A program made the position numbers and the translations under genes. A stretch of 64,000 nt of DNA. It comes from a virus. The stretch is from positions 89,003-153,002 of the IMG/VR virus record IMGVR_UViG_3300017917_003053; one strand, written 5' to 3'. The notes under the pieces are model-generated. The model was given only the letters and a program-made list of their open reading frames with translations, searched no databases and was not told where the DNA came from. Shown here piece after piece: positions 15,411 to 56,013 of this stretch; position 1 is the stretch's first letter, and every line of letters starts with the position of its first letter.

Positions 15411-18400
15411 TTAATACCCTTCGTTTTGTCTGCTCTTTTGATCAAATGCGTCTCTAATTGCTCTTTGAACCAGATTTCCTAATGGTCCATTCAGAACATC
15501 AGCAAGTACTGAAGCTCCATTAATTGTAACATTCACAGGAATTGGTGATGGAACCTCCAATGTTACAGTTGATGGTATAGCATTTTGCAGTTGTTCGATA
15601 AATCGGTCTAGTCTGTTACCAAGTGCCTCTATACTGACTGATGGATTGATCTGATTATTAGATACACCGTTTGTGCGAACCTGTGTTGGATCAGGACCGG
15701 TTTCAGAGAGATTGTTTAATTTTTTAACAGCATTCATAAATGCCAGATTAAGACTCTCTGCACCCTTCTTGAGAATATCCGATAAATAGGTCATATTTGA
15801 ATCTAAGGCAGATGTTCCCTGTGTACCATCGGCCAAATATGCTACTCCACCCTTAGAATAATAACCGTTATTGATAGACTGTAATAAACCTAAATGTTTT
15901 TGAGAAGCTTGTCTATTAACTACAAATTCTCCTGGGCTTAACATAGCTGGAACTGTGTCTGTTCCTTTTGGTTGATATGGAACTATTGTTCCACCATTAG
16001 CATAAATTGTTCCTCCGCGTTTTCTATATTGAGCAGGAGATAGGGTTGGGTTATTAAATCTTCTTATTTTTTCTTGTTCATATGATCGTTTTGCCTGATC
16101 TTTTTTATCTTGAGCTAAGAATGATGCTTCTTCTTTTCTCCAGTCTGCAAAAAACTTTAATTCATCTTGTGTAGGATTGGCTCCTTTTCTTCTGGCTTTT
16201 TCTTCTTCAAATCTTTTGCGAGCATCTTCTTTTGCCTTTTGAGCATCTTCTTTTTTCCAAATAGGATCCCAAGTTGATAATACCATCTTACTTTTTTGAT
16301 CGATATCTGCTTGATTTCTTCTTCTTTCCATCTCTTTATCATTTGCAACTCTTCTATCATTTAATGCTTTGTCTCTAGGAGTTTTGAAAGGAATATAACT
16401 GCCACCTTCGACATAAATTACACCTCCTTTATTAAAATAACTACGATCAGGCAAACTACTTGGATTAAGAGCATCAAATACGGTGCTAGAATCTCTTCTC
16501 AATCCTTCTGGAGGAGGACCATTTTCAAATTTTGTTCCATCCCATTTCACTCCATTTTTAATAGTTCCCCATACTCTATTTATAGCTGTTATTTCTTCTG
16601 TAGCTCGTTTATTTTGTACTCCAAGTACCTCGGCTGGTAATAATCTTGTATTCTTACCATACTGCATTTTACCATCTTGAGTATTAAAGGTTGGAGCCCC
16701 TCTACCCAAGCGTATTCCAAGACTGGTATTATTTTGAACTTGTCTTAAATAATTTTCTCGTTTTGTAGCTTTTCTGTATAGTTCACCAATATTAGCTCCT
16801 TGATTAATTTTTGAAAAAATATCTTTTACCTTTTCTCTATCATTCAACGTAGTGTTAAATGCATCAGGACCAAATAAATTAGGAGCTTCCATCATTTGAT
16901 CTTGTAATTCTGCAACTAGTTTTTCTCCAAAGTTTTTACTTTGTTCTTGACCAACTAAATAATTAATTTTAGGAATAATTCTATCAATTCCTGGTTTGTA
17001 CCCATTTACTTCCTCTTTAGCTCTTAAAGATGCTTCTCTAATATTTTGTACTCCAGAAATTTCTCCTACATAATCACCTCTGGGAGTTAAAATAACATAG
17101 TCGCCTGGTTGTGCTTTTTTAAATGCTCTGTTGAATCTTTGAGAAACAATAGATCTTTGGAAGTTAAGAGGACTTGGATCTACTCCTCCGAGTCTTCCTC
17201 CATCAGCATAATATCCCGAATTGATAGCTTGTAGCACACCTAAATTATCTTTAGTAGATTTTGCATTCACCACAAACTCACCGGGACTAAGCATAGCAGG
17301 AATAGTGTCTGTGCCTTTTGGTTGAAAATTAATATATTTTCCATCAGCAGCATATACTATACCACCAGTGCTCAAAGCTCTAGAACCTTTTATAGTTTCT
17401 GATAATCTATTGAGATTTCTGCCCAATGCAGAAAATTGTTGGTTATTAGTAGTTTGATTTTTATCAATAGATGTATCTAATGATGGAATCTGATTATTTT
17501 TAGTACTTAGAGTAGTACTATTTATAGTTTGAGATAATCCTTTAACGCTGTCTATTTTATTACTTAAAACAGTTTGGTTGATCAGGCCGCTTCTAGCCAT
17601 ATCTTGCTGTTTAGCTTTATCTGTTCGTTCTGATACTCCAGAAAGATCTGGTTGACCGCCAGCAGCAAGGTAATTAATTTTTCCTCCTCTGCTATTATTA
17701 ATTGCTGTTAATAAACTAAGATTATCTTTTGTAGATTTAGCATTAACAACAAATTCTCCTGGACTGAGCATGGCTGGTATAGTATCTGTTCCTTTGGGAA
17801 CAAAATTGACATACTTACCATTTGCAGCATAGACTAAACCACCAGTAGCAAAACCTCTACCTCCTCCGCCCTGTGGAGCAGCACCTAATCTGATTGCTAC
17901 ATCATTCATAGCCTTAACAAAAGCTTCTTGAGTTTTTGCTAAACTATCTAATATGCTTTTACCAACTTTTTCTAATAAATCTTTTTGAATATTTCTATCA
18001 TTTTCATTTTGCAGTCTAACTGCCTCTACCTGAGCATTTTTCAACTCGTCCATGCGAGCTTGTAAAGCCTTTAATACTGGATCATTCTTTGCTCTATCTT
18101 CTGGATTTTGTCTTAATGTTGCTAATAATTTTTGGAAGAAAGGATTTCTCTCTAGACCAGCGCCTTGAGCCCTTGCAAAATTTTCTAACAAGTCTGCTTT
18201 CATTACATCCAATTCTGGGCCGTCCACTCCAGCAATTTGAGTTAATTCGCCAAAGAGTCCTAAAGCTTTTTTGTTTTCATTGGCAAATGCTGTTTGAGCA
18301 TCGCTCATGGCTTCTTGAGCTGTCTTTCCTTGTTGAATAGCCTGTACATATGCTTGTTGTGCTACCTGGGATTGTTGAATAGTAGTAATTTGTCCACTTA

Positions 18401-21400
18401 ATGTACTATTTAATAAATTAAATGTTTGTGATAGTTCCATTAATTCTTGTGGTGTACTACCAACTAATTTCTCTGCAAATGCGCCAGATGCTTGTTTTTG
18501 TGATTCCAGTTGAGAAACTCGTTTTTGCATTTCTGATGTGACATCGCTAATGGCTCCCTCTAAAGCACCTGGGAGATTTTCTAACTCTTTGGTAGTTTTA
18601 TCTATGGTTGAATTAACTTTTGCAAGTTTTAATTGTAGATTAGCAACTTCTTTAGCTGCTGCTGGATTAACAGAAACTTCTGATGATTTTCTATCTATTT
18701 GAGCTTGTAGTGCTTGTTGTTCTTTTTGAGCACGAGATCTCATATTAGCTATATTTTGTGGAGTAAAATCTCCTTGATTCTGTATTCCTAATCTAGCTCT
18801 GTTTCCAGCAAAACGAGCATTGATCCTTTCGCCTATAGAGACTTTTTGACCTAATGCTTCTTTTGTAGATAAACCACTCTGAGCTTGCATTTCTATAAGT
18901 GCTGATGTTCTATCAGCCCTTCTCTGCTCAATTTCTACTACTCTTTCTGCTACCTTGCCTAATTCATCTAGATGCTTGGCTACATTTTCATTGTTCTTGA
19001 TAAGTAATTGTCCAGCTTGCTGTGCAGCTTTGTTTAATGGACCAGCAGCTTTATCTATTAATTCAGAAGGATCTATAGTAGTTCCAGCTTCATTTGCTTG
19101 TTTAACAGCTTCATCTACGGTATTTCTAACTCCAGCAACTAAAGTTTGTGCCATACTACTATTTGGCCCAAATGTAGCTAATATATTATTAGTTAAACTG
19201 CGAGTTACTGATCCTCCAATATCTTCATTACTACCTCCAGCATTGTATACTGCGTTTGCATCTCTATTGGCTTGTTCTGTTGCTCTCGCTCCAAATTCAG
19301 CAACTTTGCCTACTAGTTGTCCTGATGTACCCATTCTAGCAGCAGAATTTGTTATAGCCGCTTGTCTTTCTCCAGCAGAATAAGCATTTGGATTTTGTAA
19401 TACATTATTTGTTCTAGATAAAGTTGAACTAGTTAATGATGCTTTTCCACTAAAAATTTCATCAGCCTTATTGCCAATTTCACCTAATTCAAAACTGGAT
19501 CTATTTAATACTTCTTCCATAGCATTAAAAGATTTTTCTAAGCTAACAACAGCTTGCATCATTACTACAGAAAGTTTCTTAGAAGCTTCTGCTGCGGCTT
19601 TTGCTTGTGCGGCAGCGGATGCCTCAGCAAGGGATCTTTTAGCAATGCTTTCTGACATTACCGCTAATTCTTTATTGGTTTCTGCTTGTAAAGCGTCTGC
19701 TTCTGCTCCTCTTCCACTATCTCTTAATTTTTTAATTTCGTCTGCTCTTTGAATCTGGAATGTAGCATATCTTTCATCCGCTTCAGCAATATTAGATGTT
19801 AGCATCTTGAATTGATCAGGACTCATAGTTTTACTAACCTGATCAAAGGTTTTCCCAGTTCTCATCATTTCTTGAACTAAAAATTGTTGAGCTTGATCAG
19901 CTCCAGACTTTTGTGTATCTGCTCTTCGTTTTCCTGCGTCCATAGCAGTCTCGTCTGCATAGCCAAACATTTTACCAAATGTACTTGCTCTTTGTCTCTT
20001 TATTCCTGCTCCCGCTGAGGCTTCAGCAGATGATGCATCGCTGAAGGACTTAAGAAATGAGTTTCTTCCTGTAACGTTTCCAGGATTAGTCATATATGCT
20101 TGCAGAGCTTTACCGCTTTTATCTGTTGCTGTTTGAGATGCCGCTATCTTTTGACTCTGAGCGTATTCTTCATTAGCTTTTTCTGCTTCTCCAATACCCA
20201 TAACAAAACCAGCTAATGCTCCTGTTGCTGCTCCGATACCTGTGCCAAGAGGACCAAACATACTGCCAACAGTGGCTCCTATAGAAGCCATATTAGCAAC
20301 ACTACCTCCTATGGCCGCTGTTGATCGTCCTGCCTCTGTCTTTTCTCCTCCCATAGCCTTAGATATAGCATCAACGCCTAATCCTCCAACCATTGTGAGA
20401 GCCATACCAGCCATACCAAATCCACCACCTCCACCAGCACCGCCAGCCCCTCTGCCTCCAGAAGCAAATCTTCCTAAGCCAATAGCATTAAGTGCTCCTC
20501 CTCCTATACTGCTAATCAATCCTCCAGCACCTCTGCCAGCAGCCATAATGCTAGATTTACCAACTTGTAATAGGCCTGTTCCAGCATTTTTTGCAGCCTG
20601 TGTTAGCATCTGCAACGGATTAGTTGCACTTTTAAGACTTGCTGCAAATTGAAGTCCGGCATTAGACATATTAGAAACGCCAGATGTCATGCCCATAACA
20701 TTTGACCTACGATCAACAACATCTTGTCCTCTTTGATATTGTCCAACATTACTGGCTATTTGATCTATTCTGGCCTGACTAGCGGCAAAGCCTGTTGGCC
20801 CAACAGGACTTCTTACTGGTCTACTTTCTGTTGTTCCTGTGGCTAAGTTTGTTGGGCTTGGTGGTCCAACTGGAGGCGATGATCCAGCATTAGCAACTCT
20901 GACTTTTTTGCCTTGTCTACTTCCACCTCCTCCGGATTGTGCTAATGTAGCAGCTTCTGTAGCAGCAGCATTGATATCCGAGGCTCCTTTTTCTAATTTA
21001 GAAGTAAAGATTCTCATTGCTTTTAACATTTGGTCTGTTGGTAATCCACTTACCATAGACTCTAAAACATTGAAAGCATCAACATTATCCATGATGGCTT
21101 TACTGAGTTTTGCTGTGTCTTTTGGAGATAATCCACCCAAAGCTGGTGTTAGTTGAGCGGGAAAACCTCCAGCAGCAAACTTTTGTATGCCTCCAACACT
21201 ACCTCCCTTATTAAATCCTTGAATTTTATCTGCTCTATTTAATTGATGAAGTCTACTTGCTCCTATTCTGCTAGCAGCTTTTTTATTGATAACAAATTCA
21301 CCAGGAGTTAATAGTGCAGGAACAGTGTCCTGTCCTGATATTCCTCCTCCTGTTGCTTTTCTTTTTCTTGTTTTGGTTTTAACTGCTGGAACAAGATTAG

Positions 21401-24400
21401 GATTTTCAGCAAATAAAAATCTATCTACTTGATTCAAAAATTTAGGTATTCCCTTGCCTCTTTCACCCTTTTTACCGGTATCTCCTACTGTTCTTGTGGC
21501 ATCTGTTGGTATCATTGGAGGTATACCAAATAAAGATGCTAATTTAGTACTTAATCCTTGGCTAAAGTCAATAGCTTTAAATTCTTTAGATGAGTATGGA
21601 TTACCAGCTACTCCTATAGCACCCTCTAATGCTGCTCCGATTACTCCTTCTACGCCAGCATCTTTCATAATTTTTTCGATGACTGGGCCGGTCTGAGGAA
21701 CAGCACCAATCTGTTGTGCCATGCTTGATCCTACTCTAGAAATAGAATCTTGGAATCCTTTAATGATATCGTCTTCATATTGAGAACTAAAATTAGAAGG
21801 TAATACTCCACCCCATACTGTTACTTTATTACCTTTTGGAGTAATTTTTGGAGCACCAGCAACCGGAGTGCCGTATAATCCTACTAGTCCTACTGGGATA
21901 CCTGCTTGTTGTTCAGCGTCTAGGGGTACTTGAGAAGAATTTTTCTCTAATAATTTTTTAATTTCAAGTTTTTTAGCTTCTTTTTCTTCTTTAGACATGC
22001 TCCTAATTTTACTACTACTATATTGTTGTTTAAAAGCAGAATTAATTTTTCCTGCTGTCACACCACCACCATTAATAAATCTGGACACTCTGGATGCTCT
22101 CGGACCTTTTGATCTCATAGCATCATATGCCTCTTGTTTACTTCCTCCTCCTGTAAATATCATATTGCCAATTGGAATGCCGAATAATTCATTAATATAT
22201 TCTGCAAGTCCTGGGGTTCTTTTGGATTTACTAATAATACTTAAATTAGAAGGATTAACTTGTCCATCTTGAATAGATTTTTGAAGCATTCTACCAAACT
22301 GGGTAAGTCTGGCATTTTTTGCATCTTCTAGTCTATTGGTAGGATCTCTGAAGTATTTAGATAATACAGCATCTTTTTGTCCAGAAGTTTTAGCTTTACC
22401 ATATGCGGCATCTCCAACAGTACGTTTTAGGGTTCTATCAAAATCTAATGCACCATAGCCGCTAGCAAGAATTTTGTCTAAAGCTATTTTGTTTGGTAAC
22501 ATAGCTCCAGCAGCATTAGATGTTATATCATCTACTAATGGAGCATTTGCAAAACCACCTTTAGCAAATTGTTCAACATCCATCCATAAATTTTTATTAA
22601 CACCTAATTTAACGAATTTAGTTTTATCAACTCTAAATTTTGATCCTGGTCTTAGGATAAATTCATCTTCACTCTCTGGTGGATTTTGATATAATGTTTG
22701 TCCAGTAATATTGTCTTTTTTAATACCTCCTCTAACTGCTGTTCCTTTTAATTGCTCAACAACATCTACTCCTTTAGCTCCTTTTTTAGTCTTAATATTC
22801 ATCATAGCGGCCCAATTATCTTCAGATCTTTCTGCATTATCTAAAAATATTTTGGCTTTAGCAAAATCTTTACTTGTTGATACAAAACCTGGGAGACGAA
22901 AACTTTTACCAATAATTTTCATCGTTTCTTGAGAATAATATTTCTCTTGATCAAAAAAATTGGTTCCTTTTGGTATGGCTGGATTTTTATTTAATCCTGT
23001 CTGCATAGCCATCATATCAAATGCTGATCTAGAAATAGAACTATATAGTTGTTTTGGAGCAGATGTTCCTAGTGATCTTAGATCTTTTGTTTCTTTAGCT
23101 AGTTGACTTCTTTCAGTTTTAGACAGATCTTTCTTTCTAGAAAATCTAGTATTGTCGAAATCTCCACGATAATAATTTTGTAATGTATCTTTGGCTTGTC
23201 CTCCATTAGCATATCTGTTCATTCTATGAAGATTGCCTACACCGATAGCTTTTACAGCATTTTTTCTTATAACAAATTCCCCCGGAGTCAACATCGCTGG
23301 AAATGTATCAGAGTTACCTTCTCCTGGAACAACACCTCCAGTAGCAAAACCTCTAACAAATCCACCATTGTTTTGACGGCGTAAACCTCCTGCAAAGCCA
23401 GCACCAAAGCGAGTTAAAGCAGAGACTCCTCTAAAAGCTGCAATGGCAGTTAATGCTGGTAATACTGTCTTAGCGCTATCTGCTAATCTGATAAGAGCAC
23501 TGGCTAAATCTAAACTTAATCTAACGAATGTTTGAAAAGTAGCACTTTCTCCTAATGATCTGATTAGTGCTGTAAATTCTTCTCTAACTTTTGTGATTTG
23601 ATTTGCTAAACTTAATTGTGCTGTTGCAGCATCCTTGGCTAATGATCCTTGCCCTTGTTGTGCCACCTTCAATGCCGCCTGTGCTGTGGCGAATTGTTGG
23701 ATAAGAGGAATAACTTTACCAATCTGACGGAAACCACCAAGTTCTTCAACAATTTGACTGAATCTTAAATCTCGTGGATCTAATTTACTTAAACCATCAC
23801 TTAGTCTACGTACAGCTTCATACGGTCCAACGAATTTTCCTTCTAAATCAGTTAATGTTACTCCATATTGTTTTAGAGCATCTATAGTATCTTTTCTTTG
23901 AATACGAGTAAAAATAGTTCTTAAACCGGTAGCGATAGTTTCTGCACTTTCACGGGTTGTAGCACGAACACTTGTAAATACTGCCAAGAATTCATTTAAT
24001 GCATCTTTGCCTTCACTAACCCCTCTACTAGCTGTGGCAAACACACCACCAGTACGTTGAATAGCTGTAATTAAGTCACTAGCTTCTACAGCAAATTTTG
24101 CAGCAACAGCGTTAACACTACCTAAAGCATCTTCGAGTTGTCCTGCACTAATACCAAACTGTCTCATCAAAGCAATAGAACCTTCTACAGTATCTGATAA
24201 ACTATCGAATGATGGAGCTAGAGCACTTAATGCCAAAGCTTTAAGGGCTTTCTCTGTATCTTTGGCTGTTAAACCCGCCTGAGCTAATGTACTAGATACC
24301 GTAATTAAATCTTTAGAGGCTATGCCAAGGCCAGTAGAAAGACTAGTGATTTCTTTTACTAATGGACTTAACTGTGATAAACTAGAATCAGTAACTTGTG

Positions 24401-24923
24401 CCACTCTAACTAACTCTTTATTGAATCCGATAAATTCGCTTGTGGCGGATGAAAGAGCATTGGTGAACTTGTATATTACCCCAGTAACCGTAGCAAACGC
24501 TGCGAATCTTCTTACTGCTAATGCTGACTGTCTACCGAACTCTTCAAAACCTGTGGCTGTCTGATTCAAGGTTCTATTAGTTTGAGTTAAAGTATTATTG
24601 ACATTTCCTGCACCAGCGTTAATTCTATTTAAATTTCTGGGTATATTGCCAATGTTGTTATTTGCTGCTGCGGCTGCTCTTCCAAAAGCACTTAATGATG
24701 CTGCGGCATTTCTGGCTGCATTTTGTGTAGCATTTAAAGAAGTATTTAGTCTGTTGATAGATTGTTGTAAATTGTTAACATTTCTAGTAGTATTATTATT
24801 GATATTAACATTTACATCTGCTGTAATACCAGATAATTGTCTTCTAATATTCGCAATTACTGGTCTGATATTTGCAGGACCTCTTAAATTTAATTCTGCG
24901 GTTAGATTAAATGATCTAGACAT
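15411..24923 (-). CDS. Tail tape measure protein with embedded enzyme-like modules (3170 aa)
   Basis: N-terminal TP901-like TMP core (FNKELVRVAQVT...LAQAG...VNAVAAKFAVEASDL), A/Q/K-rich helical body, Gly-rich hydrophobic segment; follows tail tube and chaperone genes. Confidence 0.9.
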   Translation of the reverse strand: MSRSFNLTAELNLRGPANIRPVIANIRRQLSGITADVNVNINNNTTRNVNNLQQSINRLNTSLNATQNAARNAAASLSAFGRAAAAANNNIGNIPRNLNRINAGAGNVNNTLTQTNRTLNQTATGFEEFGRQSALAVRRFAAFATVTGVIYKFTNALSSATSEFIGFNKELVRVAQVTDSSLSQLSPLVKEITSLSTGLGIASKDLITVSSTLAQAGLTAKDTEKALKALALSALAPSFDSLSDTVEGSIALMRQFGISAGQLEDALGSVNAVAAKFAVEASDLITAIQRTGGVFATASRGVSEGKDALNEFLAVFTSVRATTRESAETIATGLRTIFTRIQRKDTIDALKQYGVTLTDLEGKFVGPYEAVRRLSDGLSKLDPRDLRFSQIVEELGGFRQIGKVIPLIQQFATAQAALKVAQQGQGSLAKDAATAQLSLANQITKVREEFTALIRSLGESATFQTFVRLSLDLASALIRLADSAKTVLPALTAIAAFRGVSALTRFGAGFAGGLRRQNNGGFVRGFATGGVVPGEGNSDTFPAMLTPGEFVIRKNAVKAIGVGNLHRMNRYANGGQAKDTLQNYYRGDFDNTRFSRKKDLSKTERSQLAKETKDLRSLGTSAPKQLYSSISRSAFDMMAMQTGLNKNPAIPKGTNFFDQEKYYSQETMKIIGKSFRLPGFVSTSKDFAKAKIFLDNAERSEDNWAAMMNIKTKKGAKGVDVVEQLKGTAVRGGIKKDNITGQTLYQNPPESEDEFILRPGSKFRVDKTKFVKLGVNKNLWMDVEQFAKGGFANAPLVDDITSNAAGAMLPNKIALDKILASGYGALDFDRTLKRTVGDAAYGKAKTSGQKDAVLSKYFRDPTNRLEDAKNARLTQFGRMLQKSIQDGQVNPSNLSIISKSKRTPGLAEYINELFGIPIGNMIFTGGGSKQEAYDAMRSKGPRASRVSRFINGGGVTAGKINSAFKQQYSSSKIRSMSKEEKEAKKLEIKKLLEKNSSQVPLDAEQQAGIPVGLVGLYGTPVAGAPKITPKGNKVTVWGGVLPSNFSSQYEDDIIKGFQDSISRVGSSMAQQIGAVPQTGPVIEKIMKDAGVEGVIGAALEGAIGVAGNPYSSKEFKAIDFSQGLSTKLASLFGIPPMIPTDATRTVGDTGKKGERGKGIPKFLNQVDRFLFAENPNLVPAVKTKTRKRKATGGGISGQDTVPALLTPGEFVINKKAASRIGASRLHQLNRADKIQGFNKGGSVGGIQKFAAGGFPAQLTPALGGLSPKDTAKLSKAIMDNVDAFNVLESMVSGLPTDQMLKAMRIFTSKLEKGASDINAAATEAATLAQSGGGGSRQGKKVRVANAGSSPPVGPPSPTNLATGTTESRPVRSPVGPTGFAASQARIDQIASNVGQYQRGQDVVDRRSNVMGMTSGVSNMSNAGLQFAASLKSATNPLQMLTQAAKNAGTGLLQVGKSSIMAAGRGAGGLISSIGGGALNAIGLGRFASGGRGAGGAGGGGGFGMAGMALTMVGGLGVDAISKAMGGEKTEAGRSTAAIGGSVANMASIGATVGSMFGPLGTGIGAATGALAGFVMGIGEAEKANEEYAQSQKIAASQTATDKSGKALQAYMTNPGNVTGRNSFLKSFSDASSAEASAGAGIKRQRASTFGKMFGYADETAMDAGKRRADTQKSGADQAQQFLVQEMMRTGKTFDQVSKTMSPDQFKMLTSNIAEADERYATFQIQRADEIKKLRDSGRGAEADALQAETNKELAVMSESIAKRSLAEASAAAQAKAAAEASKKLSVVMMQAVVSLEKSFNAMEEVLNRSSFELGEIGNKADEIFSGKASLTSSTLSRTNNVLQNPNAYSAGERQAAITNSAARMGTSGQLVGKVAEFGARATEQANRDANAVYNAGGSNEDIGGSVTRSLTNNILATFGPNSSMAQTLVAGVRNTVDEAVKQANEAGTTIDPSELIDKAAGPLNKAAQQAGQLLIKNNENVAKHLDELGKVAERVVEIEQRRADRTSALIEMQAQSGLSTKEALGQKVSIGERINARFAGNRARLGIQNQGDFTPQNIANMRSRAQKEQQALQAQIDRKSSEVSVNPAAAKEVANLQLKLAKVNSTIDKTTKELENLPGALEGAISDVTSEMQKRVSQLESQKQASGAFAEKLVGSTPQELMELSQTFNLLNSTLSGQITTIQQSQVAQQAYVQAIQQGKTAQEAMSDAQTAFANENKKALGLFGELTQIAGVDGPELDVMKADLLENFARAQGAGLERNPFFQKLLATLRQNPEDRAKNDPVLKALQARMDELKNAQVEAVRLQNENDRNIQKDLLEKVGKSILDSLAKTQEAFVKAMNDVAIRLGAAPQGGGGRGFATGGLVYAANGKYVNFVPKGTDTIPAMLSPGEFVVNAKSTKDNLSLLTAINNSRGGKINYLAAGGQPDLSGVSERTDKAKQQDMARSGLINQTVLSNKIDSVKGLSQTINSTTLSTKNNQIPSLDTSIDKNQTTNNQQFSALGRNLNRLSETIKGSRALSTGGIVYAADGKYINFQPKGTDTIPAMLSPGEFVVNAKSTKDNLGVLQAINSGYYADGGRLGGVDPSPLNFQRSIVSQRFNRAFKKAQPGDYVILTPRGDYVGEISGVQNIREASLRAKEEVNGYKPGIDRIIPKINYLVGQEQSKNFGEKLVAELQDQMMEAPNLFGPDAFNTTLNDREKVKDIFSKINQGANIGELYRKATKRENYLRQVQNNTSLGIRLGRGAPTFNTQDGKMQYGKNTRLLPAEVLGVQNKRATEEITAINRVWGTIKNGVKWDGTKFENGPPPEGLRRDSSTVFDALNPSSLPDRSYFNKGGVIYVEGGSYIPFKTPRDKALNDRRVANDKEMERRRNQADIDQKSKMVLSTWDPIWKKEDAQKAKEDARKRFEEEKARRKGANPTQDELKFFADWRKEEASFLAQDKKDQAKRSYEQEKIRRFNNPTLSPAQYRKRGGTIYANGGTIVPYQPKGTDTVPAMLSPGEFVVNRQASQKHLGLLQSINNGYYSKGGVAYLADGTQGTSALDSNMTYLSDILKKGAESLNLAFMNAVKKLNNLSETGPDPTQVRTNGVSNNQINPSVSIEALGNRLDRFIEQLQNAIPSTVTLEVPSPIPVNVTINGASVLADVLNGPLGNLVQRAIRDAFDQKSRQNEGY
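15916..23320 (-). repeat. Five copies of the protein repeat DT(V/I/F)PA(M/L)L(S/T)PGEFV(V/I) in the TMP
   Basis: Copies near 23268-23320, 21286-21335, 17743-17792, 17266-17315 and 15916-15965, read from the translation. Confidence 0.9.
22554..23198 (-). other. ADP-ribosyltransferase-like domain (VIP2/C3/Alt-type) inside the TMP
   Basis: 'PGFVSTSKD' (STS motif) and 'ESEDEFILRPGSKFRV' (ExE strand); the usual Arg of 'YR' is Ser ('QLYSSIS'). Confidence 0.7.
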
Positions 24924-25011: not shown

Positions 25012-25884
25012 TCAAACTGTAGCATCACCACCGTCTGTTGATTCAACAGGAGTGGGAGCCTTGGTTTCTTGTTTGATTTCGTCTGGTGGCAATATTGGAT
25101 TGCCGTCCTCGTCCAAGAATGGTTTTGTTTCAACAACATATTCTCCTGTTTCGTTGACCCTATTGCCATCTCTGTCTACAAAATTACCATTTTCATCTAT
25201 TAATCTATTATTTTCGTCAATTAATCTTCCATCAGCGTCTATTAATCTACCCTTTTTGTCAATTCTTCTAAGCTTATCGTCAACAAACTTATACTTAGTT
25301 AAAAATTTATTTTCTGGTAAGTTCTTTTCAAAGTTATTATCTAAACCATAGATCATGTTAGCCAAATTTTGAGCACCTAAAATGGCCACAGGATCATCAG
25401 ACTTATTAAGATACTCTTCCAAATTGCTAAAATATTTTTCTCCACTATCTTTATACACCACGCAGGACGATACTAAATAGTTAAATCTTGCATTATCCGC
25501 TTGACCTTCAGCACTATGATTATCTAAACTAGTGCGAACACTAATTAAGTCTTTAATTTTATCTCGAATTTCTTGCATTTCAAAAGCTAGTTGTTTGGCC
25601 TCATTTATTCCGAAACCTCCCTTAGCTAACCTTCTTTCTCCATCAAGTAATTGTTTTTGCATGTTAGAATATTCTGCTTGTTTTTCATCATTCCATAATC
25701 CCTGATCTCGAAGCAGATCGTCTAATTTAGCTCTTACCACACTCTTGCTCTTTATGGCGTCTGTAAAGGCTTGATTATATACCTTCTGAGCTTCTCTTTG
25801 ATCATTTAATGAAGGGGATTTAACAAGGAATTCCACATCTTTATCGTTAACTTTTGCAGTAAAGGTCTTAGTTTGCATTGTCAT
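25012..25884 (-). CDS. Putative tail assembly chaperone (290 aa)
   Basis: Immediately upstream of the TMP; C-terminal 7-aa tandem repeats (GRLIDAD/GRLIDEN/NRLIDEN/GNFVDRD). Confidence 0.55.
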   Translation of the reverse strand: MTMQTKTFTAKVNDKDVEFLVKSPSLNDQREAQKVYNQAFTDAIKSKSVVRAKLDDLLRDQGLWNDEKQAEYSNMQKQLLDGERRLAKGGFGINEAKQLAFEMQEIRDKIKDLISVRTSLDNHSAEGQADNARFNYLVSSCVVYKDSGEKYFSNLEEYLNKSDDPVAILGAQNLANMIYGLDNNFEKNLPENKFLTKYKFVDDKLRRIDKKGRLIDADGRLIDENNRLIDENGNFVDRDGNRVNETGEYVVETKPFLDEDGNPILPPDEIKQETKAPTPVESTDGGDATV

Positions 25885-26188
25885 TCTCCTTATTGGTTGG
25901 TCTCATTTTGAATTTATAATTATATCTAACTTCTGGTCCATTTCTTAATTGCTTAGAAATATCACTTGCCAAGCCTCTGATTTGCTGATTACCATGGTTC
26001 AGAATATTATTTCTTACATCCTGCCACATATTATCAAAATGTATTTCGGAATCTGATAGAGGCTCATCCATATTTTTATGATGCGCCCACAGATAGCCAA
26101 AAACATTCTCAAATCTGGCCAAAGCTCCTATCATGGTTGTTTCTAGTCTTTTGATTGCTAATTGTAGAATTATCTGTTCTTCATTCAT
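25868..26188 (-). CDS. Hypothetical protein (106 aa)
   Basis: ORF coupled within the tail operon. Confidence 0.6.
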   Translation of the reverse strand: MNEEQIILQLAIKRLETTMIGALARFENVFGYLWAHHKNMDEPLSDSEIHFDNMWQDVRNNILNHGNQQIRGLASDISKQLRNGPEVRYNYKFKMRPTNKENDNAN

Positions 26189-32302: not shown

Positions 32303-35300
32303 TTAAGAGCCTCCAGCACCGCTACAACAACTAATAATTTTCCAAACATAATAGCTTGTATTATAATCTTGAATGCATTGAACCATACATGATTGTCCAG
32401 GATAAAGAGCAAAATTGCTACCATTAGGTGTCATAAAACTACCATTAATTGTCGGATTATGACTTAAATATATAATATATGTAGAATCTACATTATGTAA
32501 TATTTTGATTTCTCCTAAATTGTCAGGATCGCTAGGTGATGGAAAATAATCTATGGAAGAATTATTAAATAAACTATCTGTAAAGAATCCTATGGTCATG
32601 TATTCTATTATATCTGGAACATTAGATAGATCATTATTGAGATCATAAAGTGGATAAAATATAAATTTACCAAATAATCTATTGATTTTAGTTCCTTTAA
32701 GCTCTGGCTCAACGCCATCTCCAGTAACATTCAATTTGCTAGAAATATTCACTCCATTAGTGGAAGATATAGTTACAGTGCCTCCGGTATTGGGATTTAA
32801 TAACGTATTGTTTTCTATTCTAAGATTTCCCACATTTAATCTGGAAGATACGATCCCTGTTCCCACAACATGTAATTGTCCACTTGGAGTTACTGTATTG
32901 ATTCCAACATTTCCATCGTTACGAGCATATAAAAGTGGACTGCTTCCACTATTTGTAACAATCAATGCTGCACTAGAACTATTAGCCCCTGATCCAGCAA
33001 TATGCAGTCTTGTATTCGCATAAGGTTGTCCAGCAAATAATTTAACTGAATTTCCAGCATATGATGTATCTGTTGTTGGCAATCCTATTCCAATTGTTCC
33101 TGATGTTGTCATTCTCATCATTTCTGTAGCTGCTGGTAAAAATCTAATAGTTTGACTAGTATTTGCAGCATTATATCCGTGACCAATATGAATTTGTGTT
33201 GACATACCTAACATATTGAGATAACCACCTTGGCTACTCAATTGGATATTAGCACCTCCTCCATTCATTACTAAATCGCCACCATTTGTGGCACCAACAT
33301 ATAATGTTTTGTCTCCAGCAGCTTGAGATTTAAAATATATTGTTCCCAAATTATTACCAGTACCTCTAACATAAATGTCTCCAGCAACATCAAGGTGTCC
33401 GCTAGGAGTTGTAGTACCGATTCCTAAATATCCAGAACCATTTAGTCTCATGTATTCTGTACTTGCTGGTCTGAATATAATACTTTGATTAGCGAGTGTC
33501 TGGGCCGATGCATGACCTATTCTGACAGGACCATTACCAGCATAAATATCTATATCTGCACTTTGATTACCAACTTTAACACTGGCATTTGATGCGTCTA
33601 GATACAAGTTACCATTTGTGTCTGCTCTTACCCTCAAAGAGGTATCTGATGATGCCGATGTTGATTTAAAATATACGGTTCCTAGATTATTGCCCGTTCC
33701 TCTAATATAGGCATCTCCGCCAACATCCAGTACTCCAGATGGAGTTGAAGTTAAATTAACACCAATAGCACCAGTAAAATTATTCACACGAGTTTTAGGT
33801 GTCCATACTCCAGCAGAATGGTATCCAAATTCTGTATATCTATTAGTAGAAGAATCATTAGAAGTAGATATAGCTAGATGATTACCTTCTTTACCAAGAG
33901 TATAATCATTAGCAGTACCTCCTCCTCTAAATAATTGTAATTTATTGCCTACACTTCCAGTGTAATTATCTGCTAATCTTAAATTACCATCTATTACTAG
34001 TCTTTCAGGAGGTGCTGTAGCTTGTGTACCACTACCAACTCCTATAAAACCATTTGATCTCTGAATATTTAAACAATCAATCCAACTTGTACTACCTCCT
34101 TTACGGGATAGTCTAAAATCTCCTTCTGTGCCACGATAAAACATACCCCAGCCAAAAGTAGATGAACTGTTGTCTGCATTTGTTACAGAAAAGAACGGAC
34201 TACTATCAGTATTACCGTATCCTAAAATTGTATTAGATGATGTTGCTCCAGAAATAAATACTGATCCAAAATTTGATACTTGTCCAGAAATATGTAGTAT
34301 GGATATAGGGTTGCTGGCAACATTTAATCCAACCCTACTTCCTGTATCATATAATATACTATTTGTTAGACCAGAAGTGCTACTGAATCTGCTAATATAT
34401 CCACTAGTTCCAGTACCTGTAATTGGATTTGTGATAGTAGTCTGTAATCCGTTTGTATTTATAGTAATGGTACCTGGACCATTTGTTATAGAGATACCTG
34501 TGCCAGCACTTAATGTATTAACTATTAAAGATGTACCACTACCAATTAATAATTGACCATCAGAATATGATGTTCGGCCTGTGCCTCCCTTATTAATAGG
34601 TATGGTTGTTGCATTCCATCTTCCAGCATTGATATTTCCACTATTATCTACGGCAAAATCTGCTGTATCAATAGTTGTTATATTTTGTCCAGCACCAAAA
34701 AATCCATCATTTCTAATAGCAAACACAAGATTGCTATTTCTGTACACTCCAAAAGCAGTACCAGAGGCATCATTGATCGCTACTGCAACACCTAAACTAT
34801 TAGGGCTTATACTTACTCCTCTTAATGAGCTTAATCCACTATTAAAAACACTAGCATCTCCAAAAGTTTTGGGTCCGTTTACAGTTTGTGTTCCTGTTGT
34901 ATATACTATTGTTGATGGTAATAATCCGCTTACGCTACTACCAAAATTACTTATATCTGAAGATGTGTGGATATGGCCGCTGATACTCACCCCAGTTCCA
35001 TTGACTTGCAAAGCTTGAGTAAAATTTCCTGTTCCTATAACATGAAGTTGTGATGTTGGTGAAACTGTGCCTATACCTATTAATCCACTATTATTAATCC
35101 TTAATTTTTCTGTTCCACTGGTGCTGATTGCCAACACATTTGCTGCTGGTGAAAATAATCCTGTATCAGAATCATTTACGAATTCAAAAGATGGATTAGC
35201 AGCACTTCCAGAACCTGCTATTATAGAACCCGTTGAACTAATATCTCCTGTAAAAGTGCTAGTTCCGACAACATGAAATTTACTAGCAGGAACACCCGTT

Positions 35301-35695
35301 CCAATGCCAATGTTACCTCCACTGGTAATAATAAGATCATTTTGTCCAAATCTCCCAGCAACTACTCTATCATCACTAAAAACTTCAAATACTGGTAATC
35401 CAGCATTATTATTGACACTCATTAAACTACCACTTAAGTTATCAATAACACTAAATAGAGAACCATTAGTTCCTTCTATATTTAGTATAGTAGCCCCAGA
35501 TATTGAAGAATAAGTGTGAAGAGTAGCGTTTGGAGCACTAGTATTTATACTTAGTCCACTACTTGATAGGACTAAATAACCAGATGGATTAGTAATATTT
35601 ATAACGTTACCAGATCCATCAATTCGGCCAACTCTGGTCGAACCGGGATAAAAGTCTATGATTCCACTAGTTGGTGTTATAATCACATCTGGCAT
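32303..35695 (-). CDS. Long fibre protein with NxGIGTxxP repeats (1130 aa)
   Basis: Multiple 'GNIGIGTGVP / GIGTTTPSGHLDVAGD' repeats; internal duplication of 'YxRGTGNNLGTxYFKS'. Confidence 0.7.
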   Translation of the reverse strand: MPDVIITPTSGIIDFYPGSTRVGRIDGSGNVINITNPSGYLVLSSSGLSINTSAPNATLHTYSSISGATILNIEGTNGSLFSVIDNLSGSLMSVNNNAGLPVFEVFSDDRVVAGRFGQNDLIITSGGNIGIGTGVPASKFHVVGTSTFTGDISSTGSIIAGSGSAANPSFEFVNDSDTGLFSPAANVLAISTSGTEKLRINNSGLIGIGTVSPTSQLHVIGTGNFTQALQVNGTGVSISGHIHTSSDISNFGSSVSGLLPSTIVYTTGTQTVNGPKTFGDASVFNSGLSSLRGVSISPNSLGVAVAINDASGTAFGVYRNSNLVFAIRNDGFFGAGQNITTIDTADFAVDNSGNINAGRWNATTIPINKGGTGRTSYSDGQLLIGSGTSLIVNTLSAGTGISITNGPGTITINTNGLQTTITNPITGTGTSGYISRFSSTSGLTNSILYDTGSRVGLNVASNPISILHISGQVSNFGSVFISGATSSNTILGYGNTDSSPFFSVTNADNSSSTFGWGMFYRGTEGDFRLSRKGGSTSWIDCLNIQRSNGFIGVGSGTQATAPPERLVIDGNLRLADNYTGSVGNKLQLFRGGGTANDYTLGKEGNHLAISTSNDSSTNRYTEFGYHSAGVWTPKTRVNNFTGAIGVNLTSTPSGVLDVGGDAYIRGTGNNLGTVYFKSTSASSDTSLRVRADTNGNLYLDASNASVKVGNQSADIDIYAGNGPVRIGHASAQTLANQSIIFRPASTEYMRLNGSGYLGIGTTTPSGHLDVAGDIYVRGTGNNLGTIYFKSQAAGDKTLYVGATNGGDLVMNGGGANIQLSSQGGYLNMLGMSTQIHIGHGYNAANTSQTIRFLPAATEMMRMTTSGTIGIGLPTTDTSYAGNSVKLFAGQPYANTRLHIAGSGANSSSAALIVTNSGSSPLLYARNDGNVGINTVTPSGQLHVVGTGIVSSRLNVGNLRIENNTLLNPNTGGTVTISSTNGVNISSKLNVTGDGVEPELKGTKINRLFGKFIFYPLYDLNNDLSNVPDIIEYMTIGFFTDSLFNNSSIDYFPSPSDPDNLGEIKILHNVDSTYIIYLSHNPTINGSFMTPNGSNFALYPGQSCMVQCIQDYNTSYYVWKIISCCSGAGGS

Positions 35696-38680: not shown

Positions 38681-41176
38681 CTAGTTCTCCTTTTCGACAA
38701 CTAGACTCTCCACATCCTTACGAACTCCTGTAAGCGTCCAAAAGAATTCTAATTCTCCCAATGTTTTTGCTCTATTTGCTTTAACTATAAATTTATCATT
38801 TTTTAGATCAATTTTATCAACATATATAGTTTTGGCATGTTTATAATTGGTAATCTGAATATTTAAAGTATCATCATCATGAATCAAGTCTTTTAAATAA
38901 TCAGGCAGAATGACGCTTCCTGCCCCTTTAATAACCTTACCTCGTCCTGTAAGACGAACTCCGTGATATGGACTTTCCAAACTTCCATACTCTAAACTAT
39001 AGCCATTTTTAGAAGGATGATCTATTCGGAAACTTTTTGTTGTAGCGCCAAAACTACCATTTACTTGTAATCTATATCCTGGATTAGTGGTTCCTATACC
39101 AACATTACCAGAAGTATCTATAACCATTCTATGAGATCCTGCTGTATTGGATCTTATATTAAAGTATCCTGATCCTGCGTTATTGCTAGTATTAACACCA
39201 ACACTCCAGTCACTAACGCTATCTATTAACCTTAATTGAGTATCATAACCTAAACTATTATTTAGTCTTATTGTTGTTTGTGAACCGGAGACATGAATTC
39301 TATCAGCAGGATCAGCATTAATTCCTAGGTTGCCAGCAGAACTGATTATTAATCTGTCTGCTCCACCAGTATCGTCTCGTAATCTAAAAGAGCCAGCATT
39401 AGTTCCATCAGCATAAGAAGCTAATCTAAATACTCTACCTAAAGTATTATAGTTACCTAAAGCAATACCAAAATGTCCGTTTGTGTTACCGCTTAATGCA
39501 ATACTGGAGTTGTCATATCTTTGTAGTCTTGAAGAACAATTAACGAATTTTAGTGCTCCGCTAACTTCTAGAGCTTCGGCTGGATTGGTGGTGCCTATAC
39601 CAACATTTCCTTGTACTATCAGTCCATCGGTAGGAGGAGTAAAATTGTAACTAGATCCTATAGCAACTCCACCACTAATTGCTACTAATCCGCTAGGGGC
39701 TGTAAATCCAACGCCAAATGATCCTCCTCCATTACAAACCCAACTACGATTAGCGCCACCGCCAGCAAGAGAATTGCTAAATTGATATCTTGTAACCGAG
39801 TAATCTGCTGCGAAACCAGTAATAATATTGTTTAACTGAATACTTCCTCTAGCAATCATATTTCCATTAACGTCTAATTTGAAGCCATTTTGAGGAACTG
39901 TAGTATTAATACCAACATTACCTAAGCCATTAACGTGTAATCTATCAACGCCGCTGGTTGCGATACTAATTCCATTAACAGCAGGACTATAGAAACCAGT
40001 TGATATATTTCCGCTAAATGATATTGATGGAGAATTAAGAGAACCAGAATTAACTGTTATTCCACTACTAAAAAATCCGCTGCCAATAACATGCAATCTA
40101 CAAGAGGGATTAATTGTTCCAATTCCGATGTTAGTATTATTGTCATAGATTAGACTACTAGAAATGCTATTATCATTTATCCATTTAGATAAATATCCAG
40201 ATACTCCAGTACCAGTAACAGGATTTGTCAGTGTGGACTGTTTGCTATTTAATTGAGTTTGAACATTGCTAGTAATACCGCTTAAATAACTTAATTCTGT
40301 CAATGATGGTGAAATTAATGAAACTATATTTTGATTATTATCAAATACTGCAAGAGTGTCTGGTGTTTGATTTGGTAGTCTTAAGTTTGCTTCTACCCAA
40401 GTATCATTATTTAAAAAAATAGTAGAGTCATTAATAATCATACTAGCAGTAGACGATGATATATTAAGAGGATCAGCACCGCTGATTGATGAGGTTATAA
40501 TACTGGTAAAGTTTCCACTACTGCTTGGAACCCATAATCCACTATCACTATTATATTGCAGAAATTGACCGTTGGTTGCTCCTGTTGTAGCAACATTATG
40601 TAATTCTTCTAATTCAAAACCATTTTGTACTTTAACATTAATAACCCCTTGTGTTTGATGAACTCTTACTAAAGTTCCAACACTTACTATATGGTTAGGA
40701 GCATATGGTTTAGTAGTTGTAATTCCACCAGAAACTGTGGGACTAAGCCATAGAATGGTTCCTGGATTTACTCCACTGAAAGAAGATAGAGTATTAAGAT
40801 TTTTTAGTGTTCCATCAACAATTACTTGACCTACAGATCCATTAGATATATCATTTACTACAATACCATAAGTTTTACTACTAGTAGCTTCACTATTAGC
40901 AATAGATAATACTATTCTGGGAATATCCCCTTGAGCACCGCTAAGATAAACAACACTCATCTTAGGAATAGTACTACCAGTATCATTTCTAACAATAGTT
41001 GTTAGATTATCATTTAATGCTGGTAAATCTGCCCATTGTTTTGTACCATCGCCAATTTTTAATACATTAAGATTTGTAATAAATCCGGGCTCACCTGAAG
41101 CTAAAACTGTTGTGTTAGCAATGTCCCATTCATTATATGTACCATTACGATATTGGATTAAGGTTTTTCTGGGCAT
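38681..41176 (-). CDS. Fibre protein with Mtd-N/hyaluronidase-N-like domain (831 aa)
   Basis: N-terminal 'IQYRNGT..EW...LASGEPGF..LKIGDG..WADLP'; GNVGIGTTNP repeats; C-terminal 'KSFRIDHP...LESP'. Confidence 0.7.
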   Translation of the reverse strand: MPRKTLIQYRNGTYNEWDIANTTVLASGEPGFITNLNVLKIGDGTKQWADLPALNDNLTTIVRNDTGSTIPKMSVVYLSGAQGDIPRIVLSIANSEATSSKTYGIVVNDISNGSVGQVIVDGTLKNLNTLSSFSGVNPGTILWLSPTVSGGITTTKPYAPNHIVSVGTLVRVHQTQGVINVKVQNGFELEELHNVATTGATNGQFLQYNSDSGLWVPSSSGNFTSIITSSISGADPLNISSSTASMIINDSTIFLNNDTWVEANLRLPNQTPDTLAVFDNNQNIVSLISPSLTELSYLSGITSNVQTQLNSKQSTLTNPVTGTGVSGYLSKWINDNSISSSLIYDNNTNIGIGTINPSCRLHVIGSGFFSSGITVNSGSLNSPSISFSGNISTGFYSPAVNGISIATSGVDRLHVNGLGNVGINTTVPQNGFKLDVNGNMIARGSIQLNNIITGFAADYSVTRYQFSNSLAGGGANRSWVCNGGGSFGVGFTAPSGLVAISGGVAIGSSYNFTPPTDGLIVQGNVGIGTTNPAEALEVSGALKFVNCSSRLQRYDNSSIALSGNTNGHFGIALGNYNTLGRVFRLASYADGTNAGSFRLRDDTGGADRLIISSAGNLGINADPADRIHVSGSQTTIRLNNSLGYDTQLRLIDSVSDWSVGVNTSNNAGSGYFNIRSNTAGSHRMVIDTSGNVGIGTTNPGYRLQVNGSFGATTKSFRIDHPSKNGYSLEYGSLESPYHGVRLTGRGKVIKGAGSVILPDYLKDLIHDDDTLNIQITNYKHAKTIYVDKIDLKNDKFIVKANRAKTLGELEFFWTLTGVRKDVESLVVEKEN

Positions 41177-52096: not shown

Positions 52097-52358
52097 TTTT
52101 TTGTGCCACTATTTTATAGAAGACACCCTCGTAAATTTCTTCCATACCTTTTATAAGCTTATGATGTAGCTTACATAAAGTAATACCGTTATCAACAACA
52201 AAACGTAATGCTGGATAATTTGCCCATGTTTTAATATGATGAGCATTTAATCCAGTCTTTTTATTACACCCTGGCCACTGACAAGAGTGGTTATCTCTAG
52301 TATAGACCTTCTTTCTCCATTCTTTATATAGTGGATCTTTATAGTTTCTGAATGTCAT
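52083..52358 (-). CDS. HNH endonuclease (91 aa), terminase-associated
   Basis: 'WRKKVYTRDNHSCQWPGC...AHHIK...NGITLCKLHH'. Confidence 0.85.
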   Translation of the reverse strand: MTFRNYKDPLYKEWRKKVYTRDNHSCQWPGCNKKTGLNAHHIKTWANYPALRFVVDNGITLCKLHHKLIKGMEEIYEGVFYKIVAQKNGRL

Positions 52359-53319
52359 GATCCACCATATCTTTTACCAGATTCATAAATGATATTTCTG
52401 GTTTCCATCCCAAGTATGTTTGAGCTTTTTCTGGTGCTCCTCGTAAATATTCTACTTCTGCTGGACGATATAATTCTGGATCAATCTCTACATAATCTTT
52501 ATGATTTAATCCAGCGTATTCAAATGCTAATTCTAAAAAGTTTTGAACACTCCATGTGTGACCAGTAGCAATAACATAATCTGCCGGACTAGTTTGCTGT
52601 AACATTAGCCACATTGCTCTAACATAGTCTTTAGCGTGACCCCAATCTCTTTGAGCATTTAAATTGCCTAACTTTAATTTCTCTGTTGTTTCTCCTCTTT
52701 TTACCTGACCAATATATTTGGTTATCTTACGAGTTACAAAATTTTCGCCTCGTCGTGGACTTTCATGATTAAAAAGGATGCCGCAGCAACCAAATACTCC
52801 GTAGCCTGTTCTGTAAATTCGCACCATATTGTGCGCCGCTAGCTTTGCTACTCCATATGGACTCTGTGGCAACAATGGTGTGTTTTCATCCTGATATTTT
52901 AGTCCTGCTATATTAGTACTGTAATTAAAACCAAACATTTCGCTAGTGCTTGCCTGATAAAATTTGGTACTAAATGAATAATTCCTAATGGCCTCTAGGA
53001 GGTTCACTACTCCAATAGCATCAATTTCAAACGTTGTGGTGGGTTGTTTGAAACTGGTGCCAACATGACTTTGAGCGGCCAAATTATAAACTTCATGTGG
53101 CTGGTAACGATTGATAACGTCGTTGCATCCGCTAGGATCAGTAAGATCAAATTCTTCCAAAATGAAGTTTGGATTGTTGAGCAGATGGGAAACTCTGTTA
53201 AGGGTATTTGTGCTACTGCGGCGAAATAGGCCAACCACAGTATAATTTTTCTCTAAAAGTAAGTCGGCCAAATAACTTCCGTCTTGTCCATTAACTCCGG
53301 TGATAATTGCTTTTTTCAT
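52339..53319 (-). CDS. gmd: GDP-mannose 4,6-dehydratase
   Basis: 'ITGVNGQDGSYLA', 'YNLAAQSHV', 'YQASTSEMFG', 'SPYGVAK', 'ILFNHESPRRG', 'RDWGHAKDYV'. Confidence 0.95.
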   Translation of the reverse strand: MKKAIITGVNGQDGSYLADLLLEKNYTVVGLFRRSSTNTLNRVSHLLNNPNFILEEFDLTDPSGCNDVINRYQPHEVYNLAAQSHVGTSFKQPTTTFEIDAIGVVNLLEAIRNYSFSTKFYQASTSEMFGFNYSTNIAGLKYQDENTPLLPQSPYGVAKLAAHNMVRIYRTGYGVFGCCGILFNHESPRRGENFVTRKITKYIGQVKRGETTEKLKLGNLNAQRDWGHAKDYVRAMWLMLQQTSPADYVIATGHTWSVQNFLELAFEYAGLNHKDYVEIDPELYRPAEVEYLRGAPEKAQTYLGWKPEISFMNLVKDMVDHDIQKL

Positions 53320-55986: not shown

Positions 55987-56013
55987 AAGAAATAAGAGAG
56001 AAAGAAAGAGAGA

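Follow-up and report, generated by a model that had tools for sequence, protein, structure and literature searches.

The window analysed here is a 64,000-nucleotide stretch (positions 89,003 to 153,002) of IMGVR_UViG_3300017917_003053, the 153-kb genome of an uncultured tailed phage. On its minus strand, the open reading frame (ORF) 15411-24923 remains open over 3,170 codons. By its family matches, it encodes a TP901-type tape measure protein (TMP) of 3,170 amino acids (aa), referred to as P0001. The core of P0001 matched PF10145 at aa 191-395 (E 1.2e-22; 81.2 bits, cutoff 33.2), and the protein also matched TIGR01760 (E 9.7e-26; 90.6 bits, cutoff 28.8) and several TMP families of PHROG. The gene is located within a minus-strand structural block that extends from the terminase (49615-51633) through fibre-like proteins. 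On its upstream side are two small overlapping ORFs and on its downstream side large ones, and no family match, in PHROG or elsewhere, was obtained for these neighbours. A metagenomic contig (L002) with the homologue P0002 has the same gene order and nearly the same protein sizes. The TMP identity proposed in the initial annotation, which was made from the sequence alone, was confirmed by the family matches, and the shared gene order agrees with it. The subject of the present analysis is the modular build of the protein, in which a repeated element, here named the joint, frames exchangeable cassettes.

The sequence DTxPAxLxPGEFV occurs in five copies, at aa 539, 1199, 2380, 2539, and 2989. Each copy has xATGG, STGG, or RGG in front of it and [YF]xxGG about 25 aa behind it. 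Because the same motifs precede and follow every copy, the five copies were regarded as one module of 55-70 aa. The layout of this full joint is (F)ATGG, the PGEFV core, a short helix-like stretch (xKxAxxxIGxxxLxxxN), and [YF]xxGG. A sixth, half joint without the PGEFV core was found at aa 2825-2852 (16368-16451, FNKGGVIYVEGGSYIPF) as a partial match to the hidden Markov model (HMM) of the joint. Furthermore, a short FAxGG motif, the mini-joint, closes every cassette, and the full joints frame the variable regions.

The [FY]xxGG motif was found 15 times in P0001, compared to 1.67 ± 1.26 in residue shuffles (maximum 8 in 2,000 shuffles). The other 32 ORFs of the window contain zero to two motifs each, which corresponds to the chance level. 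Therefore, the enrichment is real and specific to the TMP. In the first variable region, the borders and cassettes follow the order YANGG, ADP-ribosyltransferase (ART), FAKGG, I2, FINGG, I3, and KATGG. In the second, the order is YADGG, I4, FNKGG, I5, and a final GG motif. The initial annotation had reported at least a dozen [F/Y]xxGG instances, five DTxPAxLxPGEFV copies, and insert borders on the GG motifs, and all three statements hold. It had also placed the inserts after the TMP core; the inserts are present, but a backbone of fixed length (aa 1254-2351) separates them into two variable regions.

The predicted local distance difference test (pLDDT) was below 50 at FAKGG, FINGG, KATGG, FNKGG, and FAAGG in the AlphaFold2 (AF2) models of I2 and I3. 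Joint 2 modelled as a monomer displayed low pLDDT except for one helix. Thus, the joint is not predicted to fold alone apart from that helix, which fits an element needing partners. Within the gene, the DNA of the joint copies is 70-73% identical across 104-171 nt, and similarity between mini-joints does not exceed about 17 nt. The earlier suggestion that the repeats could be recombination points was not supported for homologous recombination within the gene, because this similarity is too weak. Any recombination role of the joints would rest on microhomology plus selection and not on long homology.

The features of the TMP follow each other on the minus strand. The TP901-type core (aa 1-519, 23367-24923) ends in a hydrophobic Gly-rich stretch at aa 485-530 and is conserved in about 115 of 119 homologues. 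Its first 130 residues (24540-24923) form an Asn-rich, low-complexity N-terminus (NVNINNNTTRNVNN...), to which about half of the homologues align. Joint 1 (aa 520-575, 23199-23366) has the layout GGFVRGFATGG...DTFPAMLTPGEFV...NRYANGG. It is followed by the ART cassette (aa 576-790, 22554-23198), cassette I2 (aa 791-953, 22065-22553), and cassette I3 (aa 954-1188, 21360-22064). Joint 2 (aa 1189-1253, 21165-21359; KATGG...DTVPALLTPGEFV...FNKGG..FAAGG) closes the first variable region. The fixed-length backbone (aa 1254-2351, 17871-21164) includes a Gly-rich hydrophobic part at aa 1440-1580 (20184-20606) and then a long polar stretch. The tape measure protein 9ki1_g of the PDB matches aa 1442-1608 inside this backbone. 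Joint 3 (aa 2352-2423, 17655-17870) and joint 4 (aa 2511-2576, 17196-17393) were both recognised by motif and joint HMM. They enclose a linker (aa 2424-2510, 17394-17654) with 47% S/T/N/Q and no Pfam match. Cassette I4 (aa 2577-2824, 16452-17195), the half joint, and the I5 spacer (aa 2853-2960, 16044-16367) come next, and joint 5 (aa 2961-3026, 15846-16043), again found by motif and joint HMM, precedes the C-terminal piece (aa 3027-3170, 15414-15845). This last piece is 47-86% identical in close relatives. By position, it would correspond to the tip-bound C-terminus described for lambda gpH and Douge gp16 (PMC10721106, PMC13033339). A tblastn search of cultured phages with the C-terminal 829 aa of the TMP gave no match.

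To compare cassette content among relatives, aa 520-1260 was used as the query of a homologue search. Among 8,000 candidates scored, 1,719 proteins had E <= 0.001, and 120 were listed. Sampling by likeness to this query biases the frequencies of single cassettes and not the positions of breakpoints. Nearly all of the 120 listed homologues are TMPs of 2,000-5,000 aa on metagenomic contigs of up to 235 kb, and the 120 stored TMPs all contain 2-7 joints. The extent to which the 119 homologues cover P0001 shifts stepwise at aa 573, 786, 950, 1189, 1252, 2358, 2420, 2517, 2572, ~2970, and 3025. Every one of these steps sits at a GG motif. The steps at aa 786 and 950 are informative because they fall on bare FAxGG mini-joints and not on full joints, which would match one another as paralogues.

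The cassette order also differed among the homologues. It is ART-I2-I3 in P0001, I2-ART-x-I3 in the syntenic P0002, I3-I2 in P0013, and I2-I3-ART in P0011. At the residue level, the junctions are clean. P0001 reads NR-YANGG|QAKDTL before the ART, EQ-FAKGG|FANAPLVDD before I2, and SR-FINGG|GVTAG before I3. P0012 passes directly into I2 (NR-FAKGG|SAKAPMVDD). P0002 shows NR-YAGGG|FAEAPLVDD before I2, SR-FAFGG|GVTRDPKNTLQNF before the ART, and QQ-FKDGG| after it. The identity to P0001 was 87% for the core and 57% for the ART in P0002, compared to 69% and 76% in P0003. These incongruent identities indicate cassette replacement from other lineages.

The flanks of the cassettes were compared to random 40-aa windows, in which hydrophobic-x-x-GG was found in 19%. 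The ART was flanked by this motif in 36 of 39 cases on the N side and 38 of 39 on the C side. The corresponding counts were 94/95 and 89/95 for I2 and 14/17 and 13/17 for I3. One joint-to-joint span measured 1112 ± 95 aa in 99 homologues, and the variable regions had standard deviations of 381 and 667 aa. When 32 distinct TMPs were cut at the motif, 301 segments of at least 80 aa were obtained in 110 clusters. About 80 of these clusters were singletons, and this result, together with a single Pfam match among cassette representatives (see below), indicates a very diverse cargo pool nearly all without family. Therefore, cassettes were gained, lost, exchanged, and rearranged among related phages, precisely at the joints. 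The modularity claimed in the initial annotation, and its proposal that homologous TMPs would vary at the [F/Y]xxGG borders, agree with the changes of content and order seen here, in which the breaks fall exactly on GG borders.

The first cassette is predicted to be an R-S-E-type ART. The invariant residues in seven aligned copies are R632 (23028-23030), S682-T-S684 (22872-22880), and E752-x-E754 (E752-D-E754 in P0001, 22662-22670), followed by FILRPGSKF. In R-S-E ARTs, the catalytic Arg belongs to strand 1 and precedes STS by about 40-60 residues. The invariant R632 (YSSISR), 50 residues upstream of STS, is the candidate for this Arg. A canonical-looking YYRG at aa 585 was rejected as the ART arginine, as it is not conserved in relatives. 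PF03496, the family of C2/C3/VIP2-like ARTs, matched five of the seven copies (best E 7.6e-8), and several TMP homologues carry a precomputed match to this family. The cassette, which ends in FAKGG, was present in about 46 of 119 homologues, and this ART subfamily was found only in TMPs. The ART assignment made earlier for this insert is supported by these family matches in relatives and by the invariant R, STS, and ExE.

Cassette I2, which ends in FINGG, was modelled by AF2 as a compact, Rossmann-like alpha/beta domain (pLDDT 88.5, predicted template modelling score 0.81). In Foldseek, the top matches were HAD phosphatases at E 0.02-0.5; the best was AphA (E 0.023, TM score 0.41), and phosphoserine phosphatase was also included. 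VIA-align gave the same Z of 6.4 to CheY receivers and to a class C acid phosphatase (root-mean-square deviation 3.7 over 121 residues). The residues D827-F-D829-R-T831 (22431-22445) directly follow model strand 39-41, at the place of HAD motif I, and all of 28 copies keep D, D, R, and T. For motifs II-IV, there is a candidate S/K (SIISKS, with K at model residue 144) and no clear acidic motif IV. Pfam and NCBIfam contained no HAD profile matching aa 791-950, and the I2 profile gave only chance beta-lactamase matches among PDB sequences. Among 1.84 billion representatives, the I2 profile found 54 proteins, all giant TMPs or their fragments. No relative was found in 185,579 prokaryote genomes, so prophages gave no lead to the host. 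The HAD assignment of the initial annotation was thus retained in part: the invariant DxDRT and the weak HAD- and CheY-like fold matches agree with it, but no HAD sequence profile does.

Cassette I3 is predicted to have a helical N-terminal part and an alpha/beta domain. Most of residues 1-225 in its AF2 model reached pLDDT 85-96, and in three short places the value fell to about 70. No fold match to the whole model was obtained in Foldseek (E > 0.4) or VIA-align (Z at most 5.1, on the N-terminal helices only). I3 also had no Pfam match, and a search of BFVD with the model gave nothing significant, apart from weak TMP rows that probably reflect the joint. The cassette was found in about 23 of 119 homologues. 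The earlier PD-(D/E)xK assignment of aa 954-1188 was therefore not supported, since a mostly confident model had neither a fold match nor a Pfam match. I2 and I3 (21360-22553) have a common C-terminal motif, LFGIP...T...KG.R...F, and MAFFT aligns I3 copies onto I2. From this alignment, the two cassettes may be distant paralogues. MAFFT alignments that pulled ART-only or I3-only rows to the shared FAxGG ends were excluded from folding.

In the second variable region, I4 had no Pfam or NCBIfam match and was present in about 7 of 119 homologues. I5 is composed of 48% K/R/E/D and had no Pfam match. An insert at about 16010-16400 had been listed among the globular inserts, but I5 at this place looks like a charged spacer.

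The joint was also searched outside the giant TMPs. A profile of 44 joint copies was compared to all PDB sequences and matched residues 731-785 of lambda gpH (E 1.5e-5) and, twice, the TMP gp16 of mycobacteriophage Douge (E 8.2e-9). The joint profile also scored 26.5 bits against gpH, covering HMM positions 17-73. The gpH sequence (...GGAVGGGASASGG...FHFATGGFTGTGGKYEPAGIVHRGEFVFTKEATSRIGVGNLYRLMRGYATGGYVG...) has the FATGG / GEFV / YATGG layout of the joint, and a hydrophobic Gly-rich stretch precedes the joint both in gpH and in P0001 (joint 1). In gpH, the three elements of this layout occupy residues 733-737, 754-757, and 778-782, respectively. On the basis of the profile match, the joint of P0001 is homologous to gpH 731-785 and is an old element of TMPs. 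In tblastn with joint 1, at least 228 records of cultured phages had the module in their TMPs, in most cases as one or two copies. These records included 101 from Gordonia and 50 from Escherichia, plus other hosts. The models of the solved tails do not cover the joint residues, as lambda gpH was modelled only at 818-849 and Douge gp16 at 1658-1699 (PMC10721106, PMC13033339).

Gordonia phage Yeezy (NC_031269.1, 208-6537; gp18) has a 2,109-aa TMP with three clear joints and one weak joint. Its SLT domain (aa 1511-1601) abuts the joint at 1593-1647, counted as the third, and further joints are at 919-976 and 1928-1989. Judged from these domain positions, the Yeezy TMP shows the same joint grammar with a known enzyme, an SLT lytic transglycosylase. 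Yeezy is also a tractable cultured model for asking whether joints are cut.

These results are probably best explained by a TMP of fixed backbone and exchangeable cassettes that is carried into the host at infection, with the joints as exposed flexible connectors. The backbone consists of the TP901-type core, two hydrophobic Gly-rich stretches, the span of about 1,100 aa between joints, and the C-terminal piece, probably in the tail tip. Cassette strings interrupt it at two places and include the predicted ART, the domain with the Rossmann-like fold and HAD-like DxDRT loop, two domains of unassigned fold, and spacers. The joints would let any cassette be spliced in with the backbone undisturbed. 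TMPs fill the tail lumen, exit ahead of the DNA, and help to form the envelope conduit in lambda (PMC12617516), T5 (PMC10038345), and Douge (PMC13033339). Since a TMP fills the lumen and leaves before the DNA, the cassettes would reach the envelope or cytoplasm of the host at time zero. The ART would have to act in the cytoplasm, because it needs NAD+. Precedents for such a TMP are P23-45 gp96 with its RNA polymerase (PMC10770324), T5 pb2C (PMC10038345), and the SLT-carrying TMP of Yeezy.

Several observations weigh against this explanation. The case for delivery to the host is drawn from the TMPs of other phages. The tail lumen is about 4 nm wide, and three or six copies of five folded domains of 15-29 kDa would not obviously fit in it. 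The enzyme assignments are also affected. The ART of P0001 itself scored 21.9 bits against PF03496, below the cutoff of 23.4, and the ART-cassette profile matched no solved ART among PDB sequences and gave one chance OmpH match. The Z of 6.4 and E of 0.02 of the I2 model fit the range of common Rossmann-like arrangements. I2 may be a structural part of the TMP and not a borrowed enzyme, because it has no relatives outside giant TMPs. Furthermore, when 105 cassette representatives from the 32 TMPs were scanned with Pfam at E <= 0.001, one EI24 match and nothing else was found; therefore, enzyme cargo is documented for only a few cassettes.

It is possible, though doubtful, that the protein is a polyprotein, as the initial annotation proposed. 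In that case, the FAxGG motifs and full joints would be processing sites at which the TMP is divided into free effectors, either within the tail or once ejected. Cleavage might be catalysed by the joint itself, by an enzyme of the host, or by an unrecognised one of the phage. The motif is kept at nearly every cassette border, and the FAxGG/FINGG-type motifs lie in segments predicted to be disordered, both of which agree with such cutting. Lambda gpH is cut to gpH* plus gpHC in the neighbourhood of the joint, although the site and catalyst are not established (PMC12617516). A cut between gpH residues 712 and 739 gives fragments of 12-14.4 kDa and would fall in or just before the joint. However, the estimate of 14 kDa for the fragment places the cut upstream of FATGG and not after the joint GG. 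In T5 pb2, cleavage follows R1127, right next to the sequence AEGG, and releases an enzymatic part from the C-terminus (PMC10038345). However, this cut precedes AEGG and does not follow GG, and pb2 had no match to the joint profile even with the HMMER filters off. The T5 site was therefore rejected as a relative of the joint and is a short resemblance only.

Other findings argue against processing at the GG motif. In viral polyproteins cut at Gly-Gly, of the adenain or ASFV pS273R type, the element encodes a cognate protease. A search for peptidase families, restricted to the 32 ORFs of the window, found none. The motif was not enriched in other virion proteins but stays within the TMP, so it does not mark virion maturation in general. 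For ordinary TMPs that carry one or two joints, fragmentation is not known. The only characterised cytoplasmic enzyme fused to a TMP is the virion RNA polymerase in gp96 of Thermus phage P23-45 (also of P74-26, G20c, and TSP4), a TMP of 5,002 aa. This polymerase acts on phage DNA in the cell at 5 min after infection, although the gp96 of virions is uncut and full-length (PMC10770324).

A more specific form of the polyprotein proposal starts from the lambda homology. The lambda-type joint would be a conserved processing module, either self-cleaving or recognised by a protease, that was multiplied in giant TMPs into a cut-apart train of effectors, and cassettes such as the ART would be freed before phage gene expression. 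We consider this form unlikely on the present evidence. If it is true, the same chemistry would explain the fifty-year-old cleavage of lambda gpH. The homology of gpH 731-785 also gives a testable candidate region for lambda TMP cleavage in standard laboratory phages.

It also seems rather improbable that the joints are assembly or register elements of an uncut protein, contacting the tail tube, chaperones, or other TMP chains. Most cassettes would then be spacers or envelope-penetration aids that tune the tail length or the periplasmic conduit, and host-directed enzymology would be minor. The predicted state of the joint monomer, unfolded except for one helix, fits an element that requires partners, and the joint is common in ordinary phage TMPs without cargo. 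I2 and this ART subfamily are confined to TMPs, I5 and the linker at aa 2424-2510 are low-complexity spacers, and the 105 cassette representatives had no Pfam match except EI24. In addition, gp96 of P23-45 is uncut in virions (PMC10770324). However, diverged copies of the ART all keep R, STS, and ExE, and those of I2 all keep DxDRT, which suggests selection on catalysis and not on length. The variable regions also differ by thousands of residues at a fixed backbone length, which is hard to square with a ruler role of the cassettes.

Very improbably, the cassettes act late in the producing cell on host or phage proteins, where NAD+ and phosphorylated substrates are available, and are then buried inertly or trimmed: lambda and T5 do process their TMPs during tail assembly, but no precedent was found in the literature searched, fusion to a protein of three to six copies per virion would make an inefficient late enzyme, and the TMP-fused enzyme of P23-45 acts after injection (PMC10770324).

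The neighbouring genes provided additional observations. The pair of ORFs upstream of the TMP gene (25012-26188, minus strand) encodes 106 aa (25868-26188) and 290 aa (25012-25884) with a 17-nt overlap, and L002 contains an equivalent pair of 106 and 285 aa. The layout of this pair resembles the G/GT-type tail chaperones made by programmed frameshifting, and neither ORF has a PHROG match. The 290-aa ORF contains a short tandem motif at aa ~205-250 (KKGRLIDADGRLIDENNRLIDENGNFVDRDGNRVNETGEYV), a run of D-x-x-G-x-h-h-D units. Its 'GEYV' was considered a chance match and not a joint.

Elsewhere in the window, sugar-nucleotide enzymes adjoin the terminase (52339-54131, minus strand). They matched GDP-mannose 4,6-dehydratase / NAD-dependent epimerase (E 1.8e-118) and the PHROG nucleotide-sugar epimerase. 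Among the 32 ORFs, Mtd_N (major tropism determinant N-terminal domain) was found in two and Laminin_G_3 in two. The scan gave no ORF assignment, and the likely carriers are the fibre-like ORFs 32303-35695 and 38681-41176 (minus strand). Mtd-type fibres are targets of diversity-generating retroelements. The region 56000-62000 has a G+C content of 43-46% and a positive GC skew, and the structural block has about 33-35% and a negative skew.

TMPs with wall hydrolases and one TMP with an RNA polymerase are already known. P0001 and gp96 of P23-45 are alike as giant TMPs with an enzyme domain that acts in the cytoplasm, which in P0001 is predicted, with delivery by the tail as the presumed route. 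However, gp96 has one N-terminal polymerase plus a metallopeptidase, and no repeated joints or shuffling were described for it (PMC10770324), whereas P0001 has several unrelated cassettes and five joints. Lambda gpH has one joint and no inserted domains, compared to the five full joints with cassettes in P0001. The wall hydrolases of TM4 (PMC1796659), T5 pb2, SPbeta YomI, and Yeezy gp18 are likewise enzyme domains inside a TMP. These enzymes act on peptidoglycan, outside the cytoplasm, whereas the cassettes of P0001 include a predicted NAD+-dependent ART and a predicted phospho-aspartyl-type fold. P0001-type cassettes are also shuffled on a far larger scale than those of the wall-hydrolase TMPs.

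ARTs of the R-S-E type are also known from T4, in which Alt, ModA, and ModB are brought in or made early to reprogramme the host (as cited in PMC7824862). T4 Alt is a separate protein in the head, whereas the ART of P0001 lies inside the TMP and has its Pfam match in the exoenzyme family PF03496. The polyvalent proteins (Iyer et al. 2017, PMC5512222) and the MuF-VIP2 fusions (PMC7302621) resemble P0001 as large multi-domain virion proteins in which ARTs and other enzymes are injected with the DNA, and processing into pieces was proposed for them (PMC5512222, PMC7302621). However, they are packaged in the head and built around MuF, ArdC, or a zincin peptidase, and the carrier of P0001 is the TMP. 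Pfam scans of P0001 found no peptidase (zincin included), MuF, or ArdC family, and the survey of polyvalent proteins never mentions tape measure proteins (PMC5512222). Therefore, P0001 would work like a polyvalent protein, yet it is not a member of the family as defined.

In the literature searched on TMPs with ADP-ribosyltransferase, polyvalent proteins, and injected or proteolytic effectors, this architecture was not described. New in that literature is the general plan of a fixed backbone and a conserved joint, with cassettes exchanged and reordered at the joint. The joint is common to lambda, T1-like coliphages, and actinophages, and the exchange extends across hundreds of uncultured large phages. 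Most of the cassette cargo is protein 'dark matter' without family. If the cassettes are delivered, the tail lumen would be a second route for pre-made host-takeover enzymes, beside the proteins packaged in the head.

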